Part shown: positions 20,389 through 30,665 of the stretch, piece by piece
How the letters are laid out: each line of letters starts with the position of its first letter
How positions within the stretch are numbered: position 1 is the first letter of the stretch
Source of the DNA: a virus
IMG/VR virus record: IMGVR_UViG_3300018025_000052
Location: 1-31,290 of that record
Length of the DNA stretch: 31,290 nt
Direction: 5' to 3' (one strand)
Notes under the pieces: model-generated
Told to the model about the DNA's origin: nothing
What the model saw: only the letters and a program-made list of their open reading frames with translations
Databases searched by the model: none
Made by a program: the position numbers and the translations under genes

Positions 20389-20462
20389 TGGGTTGCCGGA
20401 CGGGAATCGAACCCGCGTAGCAAGAGCCACGGTCCTGCGCTCTACCACTGAGCTACCGGCAA
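20389..20462 (-). tRNA. tRNA-His(GUG) with encoded CCA and atypical features
   Basis: Acceptor TTGCCGG/CCGGCAA; D arm GCTC-AGTGGTA-GAGC; anticodon stem CAGGA/TCTTG with loop CC-GTG-GC; T arm GCGGG-TTCGATT-CCCGT; C73 then CCA. Confidence 0.85.
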
Positions 20463-20767: not shown

Positions 20768-21204
20768 GTGTTGTCTCCTGATTCAAATAAGGCTTCCTCT
20801 GCCTTGCGCCTTTTGAGTAGGCCAGCCAAGTGCTGTCCGCCTGCCATGTCCCACATCTCTAGCACCTTGGCTGCGCCGTGATAGTCTTTGTTGTTGAGCA
20901 GCCGGAGTGTTGTTGACTTCTCGAAATTTCCGCTTCCAGCATTGAACACGAAGTCCACAAGGCCATCGAACTCCGGCTGCGTTAGTGGAACATGCACGAC
21001 GCGGTTGACTTCGGATTCAGCCCATGCCACGTCTGAGAGTAGCCAAGCATCGGCTTGTTCCTGCGTGCAGGTCATGCCCTCGACCACTTTATAGGTATGC
21101 CCCCAACCAATGGTATAGACCTTTCCGTTGGCGTCCCAATAGGCTACAAGCCTGCATTGCTCGAAGTTTTCAGTTAACTTCATTCCGTCTTTGGAATATC
21201 GCAT
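20764..21204 (-). CDS. GH24 phage lysozyme (endolysin-type)
   Basis: FEQCRL.AY.D...YTIGWGHT (E-x8-D-x6-T), FD.LVDFVFNAG and GL..RR.AE. Confidence 0.92.
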   Translation of the reverse strand: MRYSKDGMKLTENFEQCRLVAYWDANGKVYTIGWGHTYKVVEGMTCTQEQADAWLLSDVAWAESEVNRVVHVPLTQPEFDGLVDFVFNAGSGNFEKSTTLRLLNNKDYHGAAKVLEMWDMAGGQHLAGLLKRRKAEEALFESGDNT

Positions 21205-22331
21205 ACTGCTTTTTCCTTCCCATCGTCTTCCTCGATCACTTGGCAGGCGGCTGGTACGATTTCGTCTGTGTTCTGTTCTTTGAATATGGCTGTAATGGCT
21301 TTGTCTTGTATGTCAAGAACGACCATGCCCGGCTTGCGTAGTTGGCCTGTGCCGATGATCGTTGCCAAAGGACTGACGATGTGTTCCTCGATCATGCGCT
21401 TGATGTTGCGAGCGCCGTGTTTCGGGTCAGACCCCTTGCTCAGAAACTCATTCAATTTCGTAGTCACGCCAAGTGTGAACACGAGTTGTTGTGGGGTGGG
21501 ACTGCGTTCGTTTGCAGCCATCACGACACTCAACCCGCGATTCCATACTTTCCAAACTTCGATGTTAATGATTCGGTTAATGGCCTCGGCGGTGAGAGGC
21601 TTGTATACCAGAATCTTGTTGATACGCCCCATGAACTCAGGGTCGAACTTTCGTTTCGCGGCGGAGGTAGCCTGCTTTGAAATGTCCCTGAAAGCCTCGA
21701 CGTAATCCCTAGCCTCGGCGAAGCCAATGGACTCTTGGTTGATGACCCGGCTACCTACGTTGCTGGTGAGAAAGATGAGCGCCCGCGTCAAGTCGATGCG
21801 CATATTGCGGCCATCGTACATCTCACCTTTGTCCAGAATGCCCAACAGAAGCTCCCACAGGCGTGGGCTGGCCTTCTCAATTTCATCGAAGAGTATTACG
21901 CTCACCTTCGGGCCTTCTTGCGTCCAGCCACGTTGTAGGTTCTCGGGACATAGAAGTGGGCGTGTACCCTTGTTTCCGGCCTCGGCGGGGTTGTAGTGCC
22001 CAGCATAGCCCGGTGGAGACCCTATAATGCGAGCTACTTGGTGATCTTCGGTATATTCTGCGCAGTTGATCTTTATCATGCAATCCGGGTCTCCGTGGAT
22101 TGCTTCGGCGATTGACTCTACGGTCAACGTCTTGCCAACCCCAGTCGGTCCCAAAAGTAAAGAATTAAACATTGGTTTAGACGGGTCTGACAGGCCAACC
22201 CACGCAACCTCGAATGACCTGCTAAGATCATTTAAGGCGTCGTCCTGACCCACTATGCGCTTGAAGAGCAAGTCTTCAAACTTTTGCCGCGCTTTGGTTT
22301 TAAGTGTCAGGTCCAGCGGAATGTTAGCCAT
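21180..22331 (-). CDS. Single-module Clp AAA+ ATPase (ClpA/ClpC D2-like) with IGF ClpP-docking loop
   Basis: IVGQ..A, GPTGVGKT, RIIGSPPGYAG, ILFDEIEKA, LTSNVG..ESIGF, FDPEFMGRI, GARNIKR. There is no N-domain or D1. Confidence 0.85.
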   Translation of the reverse strand: MANIPLDLTLKTKARQKFEDLLFKRIVGQDDALNDLSRSFEVAWVGLSDPSKPMFNSLLLGPTGVGKTLTVESIAEAIHGDPDCMIKINCAEYTEDHQVARIIGSPPGYAGHYNPAEAGNKGTRPLLCPENLQRGWTQEGPKVSVILFDEIEKASPRLWELLLGILDKGEMYDGRNMRIDLTRALIFLTSNVGSRVINQESIGFAEARDYVEAFRDISKQATSAAKRKFDPEFMGRINKILVYKPLTAEAINRIINIEVWKVWNRGLSVVMAANERSPTPQQLVFTLGVTTKLNEFLSKGSDPKHGARNIKRMIEEHIVSPLATIIGTGQLRKPGMVVLDIQDKAITAIFKEQNTDEIVPAACQVIEEDDGKEKAVCDIPKTE

Positions 22332-25992: not shown

Positions 25993-27950
25993 ATAGATTT
26001 GTCCTGTACTTGCGGCTCGACCGGGACGGCGGAGCCAATCGAAGGAACGCTATCACGTTGACGCATTTCCTCCGGCTTCACTTCACGGACTGTGGACGTA
26101 CCCCCTTCCATGAATAGTGTCGTAGCTCCTCCCGGAGAGTACCGGCTCAAGTCTACGCGGGCTAGCATGTATGGCCCAAAGTTCTGTTCCTCCTCGACAA
26201 ATCCTTCAAACTCATTTGCCTTAATAACGCCGACGCGGTTGCGATGCAGGCAGATCATAGCATCAACGTTCTTTTCGATTGCGGCGGAGCCAGAGGCGTG
26301 TCGGCTAGCGACGATCTCATTGGCCTCGGGTCGGCGTGGTTGAATGACTAGAACGATGAACAGCCCAAGTTCCATGGCAGTAGCCTTGATGCGGGCACTG
26401 AGGTTGGAGATTTCTTGGGCTTGATGTTGGATGCTTTTGCACATCAACTGAAGGTTGTCCAGCACCATGAACTTGATTCCGTATCGGCGGACGGCTTGCC
26501 GGATTAGGTCAAAAACTTTTTCGGTGTCCTGCGGGTTAGTCTTTCCAAGCAGCAGGTCTGCCGTTCTTTGGCGCAAGACTTCTCTAGCCTTTTCGGTTGT
26601 CTCTTTCGTGTACTGGCTTCGCCCCGGTGTGTCATCGGTCTGTGTTACGTGGCAAACCCATTTACGAGCGATGCGACGCGGCGGCATCTCGAAGCACAAG
26701 AATAATCCCGGCTGATTTAGCTTCACTGTGAGGTAGTCGAACCAGTTCATGCAGAACGTAGTCTTACCGACCTTGCCCTCCGCAATGACTCCGCATACGT
26801 CGCCGTACTCATTTCCCCCGAGCACGATGTCCAGCGATTTCCACGGCGTATCAATCGGCGCATCACTGGTCCCACGCTTGTCAATCTCGGCGTCGATCTC
26901 GTCCAGCGCCGTGAACATATCAGAGACGCCCGGCACTTCCAGCGGCTTTGCTTCGCTCTTCAACTGTGCGAAGTCTTCGGCGGTATGCCCGGCCTGAATC
27001 CATTCGCCAAGGTCCTTGCCGTCCTGCCCATCTTTGCGTTTGAAGGCGGGTAGTTTAATCAGCAGGCATTTCTCGATTCCGATGCGCTTGATGATTTCTG
27101 CGGCGGCGTCCTGCCCGGCCTTGTCAGAGTCGTACAAGATGTAGATTTGACGATGTGGGTCCGGCGCTAATGCCCGCTGGTCCCACCATACGTCTAGCCG
27201 GTCAATCCACGTAGCTTTCTTCATGTTCGCGCCGGGCACACCAAGTACATTGTCGTAGCCAAGGCTCATGAGTGAAATGCAATCGGCCTCTCCCTCGACG
27301 AGGATTAGCTCCGTGGTGTCGGAGTGAATTACATCGGCGTGGTAGATCGGATTTTCGCGGCCTTTGGAGCCAAGGAATCGTGGTTCCTTGCTACCGTCCG
27401 GGCGTGTTTCGAGCCTATGCAAGGCACGCATCTTGGCGTACTGGTAGTTTCCGGCATTGATGTACGGATAGACTAGCCAGCGCCGGGCTTCATTGTTTAC
27501 GCCTAGCAGAAGGCCGAGCTTCATACGCTTGATAACGTCCAATGAGAAGCCGCGCTCCGTGACGTAGCGGAATGCCTCGGCGTCATTCAGCAGGCGTTGA
27601 TGACACTCTTCCAGCGGAGGCAGAGGCAGCGTTTCTCTTGGAACGGCGTCAAGCATGGAGCGAATTTCTACGCCGGGGATAGTCGCATCGCCTAGCTCTT
27701 TCTTGAGGCTTTTTAGCGTTCCTGACCGTCCGCATACTTTGCAGTCGAAAAGATAGTCCGGCTGGTTTTCCGGGTGGTTGGCGTTGACCTTCGGGTCCGT
27801 GCTGACGTAGAAGTGCTGCTCTTTCCCGCACAGCGGGCAATCAGTTAGAATCTGTGAGTCATTCGAGCACAGCTTGTGAGGCCAGCCCTTCGACTTCACG
27901 TAGACTAGCGCCTGAGATTCTTCGACCGGCATTGGTTCTTCGTAAGGCAT
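25989..27950 (-). CDS. Bifunctional primase-helicase (zinc finger + TOPRIM + DnaB-like)
   Basis: CPLC..CKVC, LVEGEADCISL, LYDSDKAG, EGKVGKTT, LDNLQ, VIQP, GSAAIEKNVD. Confidence 0.92.
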   Translation of the reverse strand: MPYEEPMPVEESQALVYVKSKGWPHKLCSNDSQILTDCPLCGKEQHFYVSTDPKVNANHPENQPDYLFDCKVCGRSGTLKSLKKELGDATIPGVEIRSMLDAVPRETLPLPPLEECHQRLLNDAEAFRYVTERGFSLDVIKRMKLGLLLGVNNEARRWLVYPYINAGNYQYAKMRALHRLETRPDGSKEPRFLGSKGRENPIYHADVIHSDTTELILVEGEADCISLMSLGYDNVLGVPGANMKKATWIDRLDVWWDQRALAPDPHRQIYILYDSDKAGQDAAAEIIKRIGIEKCLLIKLPAFKRKDGQDGKDLGEWIQAGHTAEDFAQLKSEAKPLEVPGVSDMFTALDEIDAEIDKRGTSDAPIDTPWKSLDIVLGGNEYGDVCGVIAEGKVGKTTFCMNWFDYLTVKLNQPGLFLCFEMPPRRIARKWVCHVTQTDDTPGRSQYTKETTEKAREVLRQRTADLLLGKTNPQDTEKVFDLIRQAVRRYGIKFMVLDNLQLMCKSIQHQAQEISNLSARIKATAMELGLFIVLVIQPRRPEANEIVASRHASGSAAIEKNVDAMICLHRNRVGVIKANEFEGFVEEEQNFGPYMLARVDLSRYSPGGATTLFMEGGTSTVREVKPEEMRQRDSVPSIGSAVPVEPQVQDKSI

Positions 27951-27974
27951 TACGCTCCTTGGTTTTCAAAGTGT

Positions 27975-28190
27975 TCATCGCAAAGATGAATGGTTTCGTT
28001 TCCAGACTGTACTGTATGGTTCCCGTCTTTGTCGCATTGTTCGTACTGTGCTCCATTCAAAATGTTGGCCCGGCGCTCCGATGGTAGCGATTGTTGCGAG
28101 AAAAAGGTATAGGCTTCCGACCGTAAATACGTTCAACCAGTGGCTCATTTGTTTATCCTCAGCCCGAGTTTGCGCCGGAGCTTCCGGCAC
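27975..28190 (-). CDS. Small hypothetical membrane protein
   Basis: Hydrophobic stretch LNVFTVGSLYLFLATIATIG. The true start may be MSHWL. Confidence 0.45.
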   Translation of the reverse strand: MPEAPAQTRAEDKQMSHWLNVFTVGSLYLFLATIATIGAPGQHFEWSTVRTMRQRREPYSTVWKRNHSSLR

Positions 28191-28381
28191 ATGATCTCGA
28201 ATTTTTCCCTAAGCTCATCGGTCTCGTTGGCGTAGATCGTGTGCGAGCCGATGCGGATAGCGTAGTGTGGGCCTTTCGGCGGAGCATCCTCAAGACGCGA
28301 GGCATACGAAGTAAAGTAGTTCCAGCGTTCCAAGCTGTTCATTACCGCCACTTGCTTTGCATCAAGACCTAGCAGCGCCAT
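28145..28381 (-). CDS. Hypothetical protein (78 aa from MALLGLDAKQ)
   Basis: ATG 28381 follows AAGGGGG. The upstream extension in the ORF track overlaps structured RNA. Confidence 0.55.
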   Translation of the reverse strand: MALLGLDAKQVAVMNSLERWNYFTSYASRLEDAPPKGPHYAIRIGSHTIYANETDELREKFEIMCRKLRRKLGLRINK

Positions 28382-28399
28382 TGGACCCCCTTCTTTACC

Positions 28400-28680
28400 A
28401 GTAGAGGCCGGTGTTACCCGGCCCCACCCGGCTCCGCGTCGGCGTGACGAAGCATACACCCCAATCTTGCCCGTCGAAACCGTAACAGGCCCACAATAAT
28501 CAGCCATAATTTCCCTACGGTCATGGCACGATGTTGTCTGTATACGCCTTGCTTTGCAACACACGTCTAAGAACTTGCCTAACAACTAGGGTATGGCTGA
28601 TTATGGTGGACCTGCGGAGGCGGTGAACGCCGTCCATTAAACTCGGTAGGGGAGTCCTTCGACTCCCCATCCTTGTATGC
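28400..28680 (-). ncRNA. Second permuted tmRNA-like tRNA domain (degenerate T arm)
   Basis: CAGGTCC-A-CCA (28614-28604) pairs 7/7 with GGGCCTG (28492-28486), again with G3.U70. It is followed by TTACGGTTTCGACGGG, a typical tmRNA 5' end. The H2-like pairing GCATACA/TGTATGC is also present. Confidence 0.7.
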
Positions 28681-28960
28681 AAACTACGCATTTGCGTAAA
28701 GCACCTTCGTGTTTTTCGCAGTTAGTTTTGAGAGTTGATTTCGGAAGTCTCCCACTCCCGGCTCAAATAAGCGCCGTTTCCTCTTACCCCGGTCGATGCC
28801 ATTATACCCCCGTATGGTGGAGGTAGAGAGAATCGAACTCTCGTGTCGTTGTATAGTCATACGGCCTGTTTATGAGCGTACTTTATAATAGCTCTCGGCG
28901 GACCAGAACGCCGGGCTACTGCCAGTACCAAGGGGCCTCACGGCCTCCACCATCTGATCT
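28604..28960 (-). ncRNA. ssrA: Circularly permuted (two-piece) tmRNA
   Basis: The T arm GAGAG-TTCGATT-CTCTC and TACCTCC-A-CCA (ends 28815) come before the 5' strand GGGGGTA-TAATGGCATCGAC (starts 28811). The acceptor stem has G3.U70 and A73. PK1 is CGGGAG/CTTCCG plus TGGGAG/CTCTCA. The resume context is CTAACT|GCG, giving tag AKNTKVLYANA* at 28719-28684. Confidence 0.9.
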
Positions 28961-28966
28961 ACCTAC

Positions 28967-28995
28967 AGGATAACACAACCCCTTGCTCAAGTCAA
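28967..28995 (-). promoter_or_regulatory. Sigma70-type promoter TTGACT-N17-TATCCT for the tmRNA precursor
   Basis: Minus strand reads TTGACT tgagcaaggggttgtgt TATCCT, overlapping the helicase stop. The predicted start is about 28960. Confidence 0.78.
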
Positions 28996-30665
28996 GACTT
29001 TCTTAAAACTTTTGAAAGAGCAATTTGAGCCATTCCTTTAGTTATCCCTTGTGGAATAGGTATTCTAAATCTCCGTAAAAGTCTAAGTTGTGCAAGCGTA
29101 GCTTCATCTTTATGCCAACGCGCCTCTCGTCTCACCAGTGTCATTTCTTCGGGGCAAAGCAATCTTACAAATTCTTCAGCGATTCGGAGAGCTTCTGGCA
29201 AATCATTGATGTTATGTTCGTCAACATGATTTATTTTTTCGCCCAATTGCCCACTTACATGCCATTTCTGTACAAGGTCTTCATACACATCTAGCCTACC
29301 GCTTTTCAAATATAGCATGTAATGGCCGTCTGTAGACTTATGCCACCGTAACTTTGATGCTCCAAGAATTTCTTCTGCCCATTTGAAAGAAAACAAATCG
29401 ACGCTTACCGCGTAGCTTCTGAGCTTCAACAGGTCTTGTGCGTCTTTCAGGTTGGCGTTCGGATGCTCTTCTTGAACCTTGTTGAAATAGTCCAGCGCCG
29501 CTGTTACTGTCCGCCCTTGCATGTCCATGCGTTCCGACATACCGAAGAGTTTGGGGACTGTGATGAGCGAGTGCTTCGTAGTGGCGTCCACAACGTCCAG
29601 TAAGATGCAGTCTTCCTTTTTAATAGGCGTATTGTCGGCTCTGGCTTCAAGCAGATTATTGAGACCGTCCGGGATGCGCGTGCCCCGGCCTGTGCATTGG
29701 ACGTAGAGGAGTTGGGACTTGGTTGGCCGGGCCATGACGATGCAGCCGATGTGCCAATCGTCGTATCCTTCGGTGAGGACGGCGCAGTTGCATAGAACTT
29801 TAATGGTTCCATTTCGCAGCGCCATAAGTTTAAAGGCCCGGTTGACATCCTCTCCCCATACGGCAGCCGCCGCGATTCCATGGGCTTGGAAAACAGCCGC
29901 CATTTGTTGAGAATGGCTAATTCCGACGCAGAAAACCAAGGTAGGTCGTCCTTGCGCTTTTTCGAGCCAGTGCTTGACGACAAGCTCATTCCGCTGAGAG
30001 TTGTTAACAGCATTTTCCAATTCATCTGTAGCAAAGTCGCCAGCGCGGGTATGTACTCCATCCAGCGATTGATCTGTTGTAATCTTGTAGCCTCGGAGGT
30101 TGACGAGCCACCCTTGTTTGATGGCATCGAGAATGCCCATCTGGTAAGTGACCTCTGAAAACACTTCGGCAAGGCCCTTTCCATCCGCACGATTAGGCGT
30201 AGCGGTAACTCCAACATGTAGGATGTGGCTCGTGTCGGCCAGCACTCCGAAGTACTGGTAAATGGTTTGGTAACTGTCTGCGATTGCATGATGAGCCTCG
30301 TCTGTGACTATGATTCCAAAGTCTTCCGGCCTCAGTGCTTGCAAGCGGTTTGAATTCGCCCGGCTGAGTGTGGGCACGCTACCGACTACAATCTGCGAAT
30401 TGTTGTCGTCGCGCAGATAACCCATCTCAATTGCCACTGACAATTCAGGATTCCATTTCTTGATCTTGTCTGCGGCCTGCTGCGCAAGCTCCTCCCTATG
30501 CACTAGAACTAACATACGCTTATTTGGTATCAGTCGGGGAAGATTCGCAAAAACTACAGTCTTACCGACGCCGGTAGGCATGGTAACCAATTGACGCTTC
30601 ACGCCTAAATACCATTTGTTAGTGATCGCTTGGAGGGCATCGACTTGGTACGGACGCAGTTTCAT
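28992..30665 (-). CDS. Superfamily 2 (DEAH, ResIII/Irc3-like) helicase
   Basis: LRPYQ, MPTGVGKT, TDEAH, TATP, LTEGYD, QCTGRGTR. ATG 30665 overlaps the upstream stop. Confidence 0.93.
   Translation of the reverse strand: MKLRPYQVDALQAITNKWYLGVKRQLVTMPTGVGKTVVFANLPRLIPNKRMLVLVHREELAQQAADKIKKWNPELSVAIEMGYLRDDNNSQIVVGSVPTLSRANSNRLQALRPEDFGIIVTDEAHHAIADSYQTIYQYFGVLADTSHILHVGVTATPNRADGKGLAEVFSEVTYQMGILDAIKQGWLVNLRGYKITTDQSLDGVHTRAGDFATDELENAVNNSQRNELVVKHWLEKAQGRPTLVFCVGISHSQQMAAVFQAHGIAAAAVWGEDVNRAFKLMALRNGTIKVLCNCAVLTEGYDDWHIGCIVMARPTKSQLLYVQCTGRGTRIPDGLNNLLEARADNTPIKKEDCILLDVVDATTKHSLITVPKLFGMSERMDMQGRTVTAALDYFNKVQEEHPNANLKDAQDLLKLRSYAVSVDLFSFKWAEEILGASKLRWHKSTDGHYMLYLKSGRLDVYEDLVQKWHVSGQLGEKINHVDEHNINDLPEALRIAEEFVRLLCPEEMTLVRREARWHKDEATLAQLRLLRRFRIPIPQGITKGMAQIALSKVLRKS

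Follow-up and report, generated by a model that had tools for sequence, protein, structure and literature searches.

A circularly permuted tRNA-like domain behind a complete phage tmRNA gene, most likely the leftover of one tmRNA gene displaced by another

Circularly permuted, or two-piece, tmRNA genes were reportedly described by Keiler et al. in 2000 and by Sharkady and Williams in 2004. Such genes are thought to originate and to turn over through duplication and recombination, and to our knowledge the intermediates of this turnover have rarely been seen. Transcripts can also be punctuated by tRNA-like substrates of RNase P, as in mitochondrial tRNA punctuation and with the non-tRNA substrates of bacteria. 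Phages, too, are well known to carry two-piece tmRNAs (PMC9004378, PMC11915505). Other tmRNAs are devoid of a tag: a passage of PMC4131195 that cites Mao et al. 2009 describes the tmRNA of mycobacteriophage DS6A as a tRNA-like domain only; and the class termed "permuted, no CDS" is mostly mitochondrial (PMC11915505; Jacob et al. 2004, cited in PMC10085705). Finally, tmRNA pseudogenes and gene fragments are known in bacterial genomes, and fragments that arise by the integration of islands are common there (PMC4131195).

The locus described here lies in the window, that is, the whole stretch of 31,290 nt that was analyzed (IMG/VR record IMGVR_UViG_3300018025_000052). This 31-kb fragment of an uncultured phage carries a replication module with genes for a helicase, a primase-helicase, RecA, and a family-A DNA polymerase. 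The source metagenomes of its near-identical contigs (JGI and ENA assemblies) are taken to be peat samples. On the minus strand, a second permuted tRNA-like domain (domain 2, 28689-28438) lies behind a complete permuted tmRNA gene (copy 1, 28877-28684), and the whole RNA locus is best read as two circularly permuted tmRNA genes arranged head to tail under one promoter (Table 1). The same promoter is also present upstream of the single tmRNA gene of a sister phage. No terminator-like site was found anywhere in 28100-29100, indicating that the tmRNA and the downstream genes share one transcript.

Table 1. Features of the RNA locus and its surroundings, in the order of transcription (positions are those of the window)
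Feature	Position	Strand	Description
Sigma-70-like promoter	28967-28995	-	TTGACT, 17 nt, TATCCT with TG; drives the whole RNA locus
Leader (5' extension of acceptor piece 1)	28878-28966	-	common to the sister tmRNA gene; 44-nt core identical
Domain 1, 3' half	28815-28877	-	helix-2 strands, T arm, acceptor 3' strand, A, CCA; Rfam RF04321
Gene 1, intervening segment	28812-28814	-	3 nt
Domain 1, 5' half	28720-28811	-	acceptor 5' strand, helix-2 strands, pseudoknot 1
Gene 1, tag reading frame	28684-28719	-	AKNTKVLYANA and stop
Domain 2, 3' half	28604-28689	-	its start overlaps the final tag codon and the stop of gene 1
Gene 2, intervening segment (spacer)	28493-28603	-	111 nt; its ends form a 13-bp helix that prolongs the acceptor stem
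Domain 2, 5' half	28438-28492	-	acceptor 5' strand, conserved 5' tmRNA motif, helix-2 strands
Deletion junction	28437-28438	-	sister phage has 81 nt at this point
3' region common to the sister gene	28382-28437	-	after the tag stop in the sister; 8-bp hairpin 28425-28404
78-residue ORF, function not assigned	28145-28381	-	co-transcribed, downstream of the RNA locus

Copy 1 matches Rfam RF04321 over its full length with 64.8 bits, well within a family whose gathering score is 47. Its T arm is canonical, with 5 bp and a 7-nt loop, its acceptor stem contains the G3.U70 pair, and its 11-residue tag (AKNTKVLYANA) is homologous to the sister tag (ANTKVMYATA) in the Rfam alignments. With all parts of a two-piece tmRNA present, copy 1 is, as far as sequence can tell, the working tmRNA of the phage. 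Of the 108 distinct domain candidates considered below, 7, the window's own counted, have an intervening segment of similar length (3 to 5 nt), and in one other locus (L137) a 4-nt segment accompanies an acceptor stem that is the same as that of copy 1. Domain 1 deviates from the family consensus at two spots that are normally conserved, the GGAC ahead of the T arm and the U-rich part of the 5' motif (28815-28850 and 28790-28811), and copy 1 scores 15 bits below the sister gene; domains 1 and 2 are each atypical, in different places.

Multiple pairings make up domain 2. A preliminary description of this DNA had proposed that the coding piece of copy 1 itself ends in a second acceptor strand, and the acceptor 3' strand, A, and CCA that it placed at 28614-28604 are present base for base (discriminator A at 28607, CCA at 28606-28604). 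The proposed partner of this strand is there as well: 28614-28608 pair with 28492-28486 at 7 of 7 positions, with G3.U70 and the discriminator A. The 111-nt spacer extends the acceptor stem as had been described, with 28604-28592 opposite 28508-28496 (13/13), and both of the nested helix-2-like pairings are found, one imperfect (28646-28639 with 28468-28461, 7/8) and one perfect (28680-28674 with 28458-28452, 7/7). A further helix-2-like pairing, of 28689-28686 with 28445-28442 (4/4), had not been listed. The claim that the second 5' piece has the 5' end of a typical tmRNA is borne out by an exact copy of the conserved motif at 28481-28470, which is unique in the window. In addition, a GGAC is located at 28635-28632 and a branch hairpin at 28668-28649. 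Domain 2 therefore resembles the two-piece tmRNA genes of RF04321 and RF01850 in its order of 3' half, intervening segment, and 5' half, and in its G3.U70, A73, encoded CCA, segment-end helix, 5' motif, GGAC, and helix-2 pairings. Unlike these genes, domain 2 contains no canonical T arm, pseudoknot 1, or tag frame, scores far below the family threshold, and lies directly behind a complete permuted tmRNA, its 3' half being contiguous with the coding piece of that tmRNA.

The T arm of domain 2 is indeed aberrant, as had been noticed from the start, with 2 of 5 pairs in the canonical register. Its place is occupied by a non-canonical hairpin (28635-28616) with 7 bp, bulged, a 5-nt loop, and a 1-nt linker, and the stretch that forms this hairpin is the 17 nt between the GGAC and the acceptor strand. 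A search with RF04321 yields a weak local match of 15.9 bits (E 0.68, in a search of 901 nt) over 28635-28473, below the gathering score. The loss of the T arm argues against domain 2 as a working tRNA mimic. The helix formed by the acceptor stem and the spacer is present in both the minimum-energy and the centroid folds, with a z of -5.3 for the 249-nt domain and of -6.1 for the 581-nt precursor. Forcing the helix-2 pairs of the preliminary description costs 14 kcal/mol relative to the optimum, a penalty that is uninformative because the method fails in the same way on the intact sister gene, where helix 2 is missed as well.

The conserved 5' motif also has a complement immediately ahead of the 3' hairpin (28482-28475 with 28435-28428, 8-9 pairs), and the same complementarity is seen in the sister phage (L052, about 2061-2069 with 2190-2198). 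Energy models prefer this helix, which closes the whole coding piece; as a modelled structure, it may represent a precursor in an inactive conformation, or it may be coincidental.

For comparison, phage permuted tmRNA loci were collected by two pattern scans, and a simple pairing scan gave 108 distinct candidate tRNA-like domains. In every other genuine domain compared, the T arm has 5 of 5 stem pairs and a 7-nt loop and either abuts the acceptor strand or is shifted by 1 nt; domain 2 is the only genuine domain among them without such a 5-bp/7-nt arm. Two permuted domains in tandem were observed, among the loci scanned, only in the window and its near-identical copies. Full-text literature searches likewise returned neither tandem permuted tmRNA genes nor a coding piece with a second tRNA-like domain at its end; the preliminary description, too, knew of no described equivalent. 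The spacer helix had been taken as support for the second domain. It is present, but as an argument it is weaker than it had seemed, since a segment-end helix of 8-14 contiguous pairs that continues the acceptor stem is the norm in the family (23 of the 24 domains with an intervening segment of at least 40 nt), and with 13 bp that of the window is ordinary. The long intervening segments of some other loci (L005, L007, L018, and L034) contain T-arm-like motifs, and one of them (L005) also contains a further CCACCA. These motifs may be the debris of earlier duplications or recombinations in the gene family.

The sister phage offers a close comparison. Its contigs (L052-L055, L072, and L075) have a single canonical permuted tmRNA gene (RF04321, 79.6 bits) in the same place, behind the same promoter and leader. 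Alignment of window and sister by blastn and MAFFT reveals three homologous blocks. The first, window 28996-28896, corresponds to positions 1852-1952 of L052, in the sister leader, with 91% identity and a 44-nt identical core. The second, window 28494-28438, corresponds to the 5' end of the sister coding piece, again with 91% identity (5 substitutions in the 55 nt of 28438-28492), so that the tRNA-like match of domain 2, whose 5' half this is, cannot be put down to chance. The third, window 28437-28143, corresponds to the hairpin after the sister tag and the 78-residue ORF, with 93% identity. Between the second and third blocks, the window is missing exactly 81 nt, a gap to which the greater part of pseudoknot 1 and the complete tag reading frame with its stop fall, and domain 2 is thus without either element. 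Between the first and second blocks, the window has 401 nt (28895-28495), made up of copy 1, the 3' half of domain 2, and the spacer, versus 97 nt in the sister, and no close relative of these 401 nt was found among the loci compared.

This alignment changes several points of the preliminary description. The 8-nt motif that it had placed before PK1 in the second piece comes, in the intact sister gene, after the tag stop codon. The polarity also turns around: the "second" domain appears to belong to the resident gene of the lineage, and the complete upstream gene would be the newcomer. Of the options that had been considered, tandem permuted tmRNA genes are upheld as an arrangement, given the homology with the sister, but not as two working genes, given that domain 2 is without pseudoknot 1, tag, and canonical T arm.

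Copy 1 and the sister gene are homologous in tag and pseudoknot 1, but far more diverged there than in the 5' piece, indicating that copy 1 did not arise by recent self-duplication and is a related allele instead. Both bases of acceptor pair 7:66 in domain 2 differ from those of the sister (A-U versus G-C). Between the 5' piece and its sister counterpart, the difference is 9%, versus 15-23% at the four-fold sites of the flanking genes. This divergence would be compatible with drift in the window lineage alone as well as with partial constraint.

A survey of the primase-helicase gene found a near-identical cluster on 52 contigs and a 96% identical variant, that of the sister phage, on 7 contigs. 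Compared with the near-identical contigs L048-L051, the window has 5 variable sites in 8.8 kb. The RNA locus has one variable site, a C-to-U change at 28407 within the 8-bp hairpin that keeps the pair as G.U. Protein-guided look-ups retrieved these near-identical contigs, the sister type (L052-L055), and distant relatives (L056, L196, and L197) in which this site is devoid of a tmRNA. Scans with patterns from the junction, from the leader (viral and metagenome sequences), and from the 5' piece (viral sequences and genomes) added only more copies of the sister type (L072 and L075). With two haplotypes only, of which the tandem one is near-clonal, covariation cannot decide. One contig, which carries P0090, is a possible third haplotype.

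The gap between the helicase and primase genes, in which the RNA locus lies, is a hypervariable and recombination-prone accessory island in this phage group. In the sister it contains an EcoRII-C gene, and in relatives with 52-57% identity it contains an acetyltransferase gene or methylase genes, with no room for a tmRNA. The gap spans window 27950-28992, L052 634-2500, and L196 2864-4500, and also holds the tmRNA variants and small ORFs. The two 78-residue ORFs that flank the sister tmRNA were considered as recombination repeats and discarded, since they are unrelated.

On balance, the tandem pair probably arose by recombination in this variable island, with the downstream resident copy left as a decaying remnant. 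The downstream copy (domain 2 together with the hairpin region to about 28400) would then be the rest of the lineage's resident tmRNA gene. Unequal recombination at the helicase-primase island would have joined two diverged tmRNA alleles, one of the copy-1 type and the other a resident-type allele whose intervening segment was longer. A 4-nt microhomology, at which the tag end of one allele meets the start of the other, may mark the crossover point; the first helix-2 strand of the sister acceptor piece starts with the same four letters as the 3' half of domain 2. The second tag block would subsequently have been deleted, and the redundant downstream copy would have decayed. The remnant would still fold into its acceptor stem and spacer helix and might be cut incidentally, but no role in trans-translation would be expected of it. 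As nothing separates the two permuted genes, the coding part of copy 1 continues directly into the 3' half of copy 2 as a single RNA. The middle piece shared by two domains, as proposed earlier, thus exists as a continuous stretch of RNA, but it calls for no separate design, as the topology of abutting permuted genes suffices.

Two independent disabling lesions beside an intact copy are the usual sign of a redundant, decaying gene, which favors the reading of domain 2 as a remnant. Change in the reverse direction is less likely, since it needs the insertion of a tag block and the repair of a T arm. With essential parts missing and more than one disabling lesion, domain 2 would fall among tmRNA pseudogenes or remnants. 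Like bacterial tmRNA pseudogenes, it is a partial gene beside an intact one and is without essential parts; unlike them, where one gene end is missing or an island has integrated, it keeps both ends, has an interior deletion, is permuted, and is found in a phage. With the tmRNAs that consist of the tRNA-like domain only (DS6A and "permuted, no CDS" forms), domain 2 shares the presence of such a domain without an mRNA-like part, and the jakobid mitochondrial forms are permuted as well. However, these are the sole tmRNA of their genome and presumably keep the tRNA-like T arm, whereas domain 2 is a second copy directly downstream of a complete tmRNA and has lost its T arm, which sets it outside this class. 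Domain 2 is most likely the leftover of one tmRNA gene displacing another, an unusual arrangement but no new kind of RNA.

Some observations point away from decay. The helix-forming parts of domain 2 are all intact, including the 7/7 acceptor stem with G3.U70, the ACCA, the 13/13 spacer helix, and the three helix-2 segments. Set against the heavily changed and refolded 17 nt of the T arm, their integrity gives an uneven pattern, which could mean that a remodelled structure has been selected and that decay is not uniform. In addition, pair 7:66 is changed on both sides, and the tandem haplotype is the commoner one (52 versus 7 contigs). With no terminator before the downstream genes, a tRNA-like cleavage site could be useful at this position.

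These points bear on an explanation that is unlikely but deserves serious attention, namely that domain 2 has been exapted as a structural or processing module, kept for its fold and no longer a tRNA mimic on the ribosome. In one version, RNase P would cut 5' of 28492 and 3' trimming to the CCA would give the coding piece a protected 3' end, split from the replication mRNA. In the other, uncut version, domain 2 would be a stable 3' domain at the position where one-piece tmRNAs carry pseudoknots 2-4. RNase P cleaves minihelices of acceptor and T stem, as well as several non-tRNA substrates, and domain 2 agrees with working permuted genes both in the -4 to -1 context before 28492 and in its spacer-end helix. 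Moreover, the helix of acceptor stem and spacer is the dominant predicted structure, all the helices are kept while the T arm has been swapped for another stable hairpin, the RNA locus and the downstream genes are on one transcript, and the tandem haplotype is abundant. However, the sister phage does without such a module; there, the coding piece continues through the shared 3' hairpin and directly into the shared ORF. Domain 2 is present in a single near-clonal haplotype, so that exaptation has no comparative support, and the intact helices could equally be explained by a young remnant. As in the punctuation of transcripts by tRNAs, an acceptor-like helix with a 3' CCA stands between an RNA gene and a downstream mRNA with no terminator; in contrast to that system, cleavage at domain 2 is hypothetical, and the sister phage has no such site. 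If the remnant is processed, it would provide the first tmRNA with a coding piece that ends in a second tRNA-like domain.

A more elaborate possibility, which we consider doubtful, is a three-piece complex that results from the processing of both domains. The acceptor piece would hold the coding RNA (28811-28604) at its 5' end, and at its 3' end the remodelled domain 2, with a CCA of its own, would be paired to a third RNA that begins at 28492. Domain 2 would serve as an end defined by RNase P and CCA, perhaps carrying alanine, which shields the coding piece and frees it from the mRNA downstream. Less probable again is a true three-piece tmRNA in which both domains are processed and both CCA ends are charged with alanine. 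Here, a middle RNA (28811-28604) would pair through its 5' end with the acceptor piece and through its 3' end with a third piece (28492 onward). AlaRS needs little beyond the acceptor helix, and G3.U70, A73, and an encoded CCA are found in both domains; the predicted trans-pairing of domain 2 amounts to -14.0 kcal/mol, compared with -7.5 +/- 3.2 kcal/mol for shuffled partners. Nevertheless, domain 2, unlike all of the other domains compared, has no canonical T arm, which makes an elbow for SmpB and the ribosome unlikely; in addition, the tag is deleted, the Rfam score is far under the threshold, and no second example occurs among the 108 distinct domain candidates.

It is quite improbable that domain 2 is a tag-less decoy that titrates SmpB and so damps trans-translation by the host, after the manner of mycobacteriophage DS6A. 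An RNA of the domain-only type acts as an inhibitor of tmRNA even when it cannot be charged (PMC4131195, citing Mao et al. 2009), and domain 2 still has its GGAC and the conserved 5' motif, but a decoy would starve the phage's own intact tmRNA, which is made from the same transcript, and domain 2 has lost the T arm and has no promoter of its own. Hardly any weight is given to an attachment-site fragment (from imprecise excision of a host tmRNA, or an attP) or a chance resemblance, because, common as integration-made tmRNA fragments are in bacteria (PMC4131195), domain 2 has both halves and a family-typical intervening segment in permuted order, its 5' half is orthologous to a phage gene, the window contains no integrase, and a pattern search of bacterial genomes gave no match; the gene content of the window and the empty search led us to reject the attP or host-fragment version altogether. 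A permuted tRNA mimic like that of Y RNA was also rejected, with no Rfam match at E up to 10 and a piece orthologous to tmRNA.

Together, the window and the sister phage form a dated before-and-after pair, and they make concrete the path by which one phage tmRNA gene may be replaced by another. Before, there is a single canonical gene; after, a diverged tmRNA module sits within the old gene and uses its promoter, its leader, and its 3' hairpin, and the older tRNA-like domain is left with neither tag nor T arm.

The locus also has practical consequences for annotation. Gene callers report a 120-residue ORF (28145-28507, minus strand) that starts inside the 3' arm of the spacer and reads through the second 5' piece, so that a spurious protein is annotated across the remnant. 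The version that starts at 28507 is an artefact, as a 1-nt indel relative to the sister, located just upstream of the ATG at 28381, breaks the frame; comparison of the two phages shows the conserved candidate ORF to be the 78-residue version only. A reading of the second 5' piece as protein-coding, or as a "long tag", was rejected on the grounds of the same indel and of the sister gene, in which this hairpin and this ORF come after an ordinary tag stop. ARAGORN detected neither copy 1 nor domain 2.

Several other features of the window were recorded. A single-module AAA+ protein (Pfam AAA_2 and ClpB_D2-small) is encoded at 21180-22331 on the minus strand, in the same phage as the tmRNA, and a homologue is present in the distant relative L196, which is devoid of a tmRNA at the corresponding site. 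Instead of the usual LAA, the tags of these phages have ANA or ATA at their ends, and a phage-specific pairing of tag and unfoldase is conceivable. Lastly, the replication module includes a tRNA-His gene (anticodon GTG) at 20389-20462 on the minus strand, which both ARAGORN and Rfam detect.
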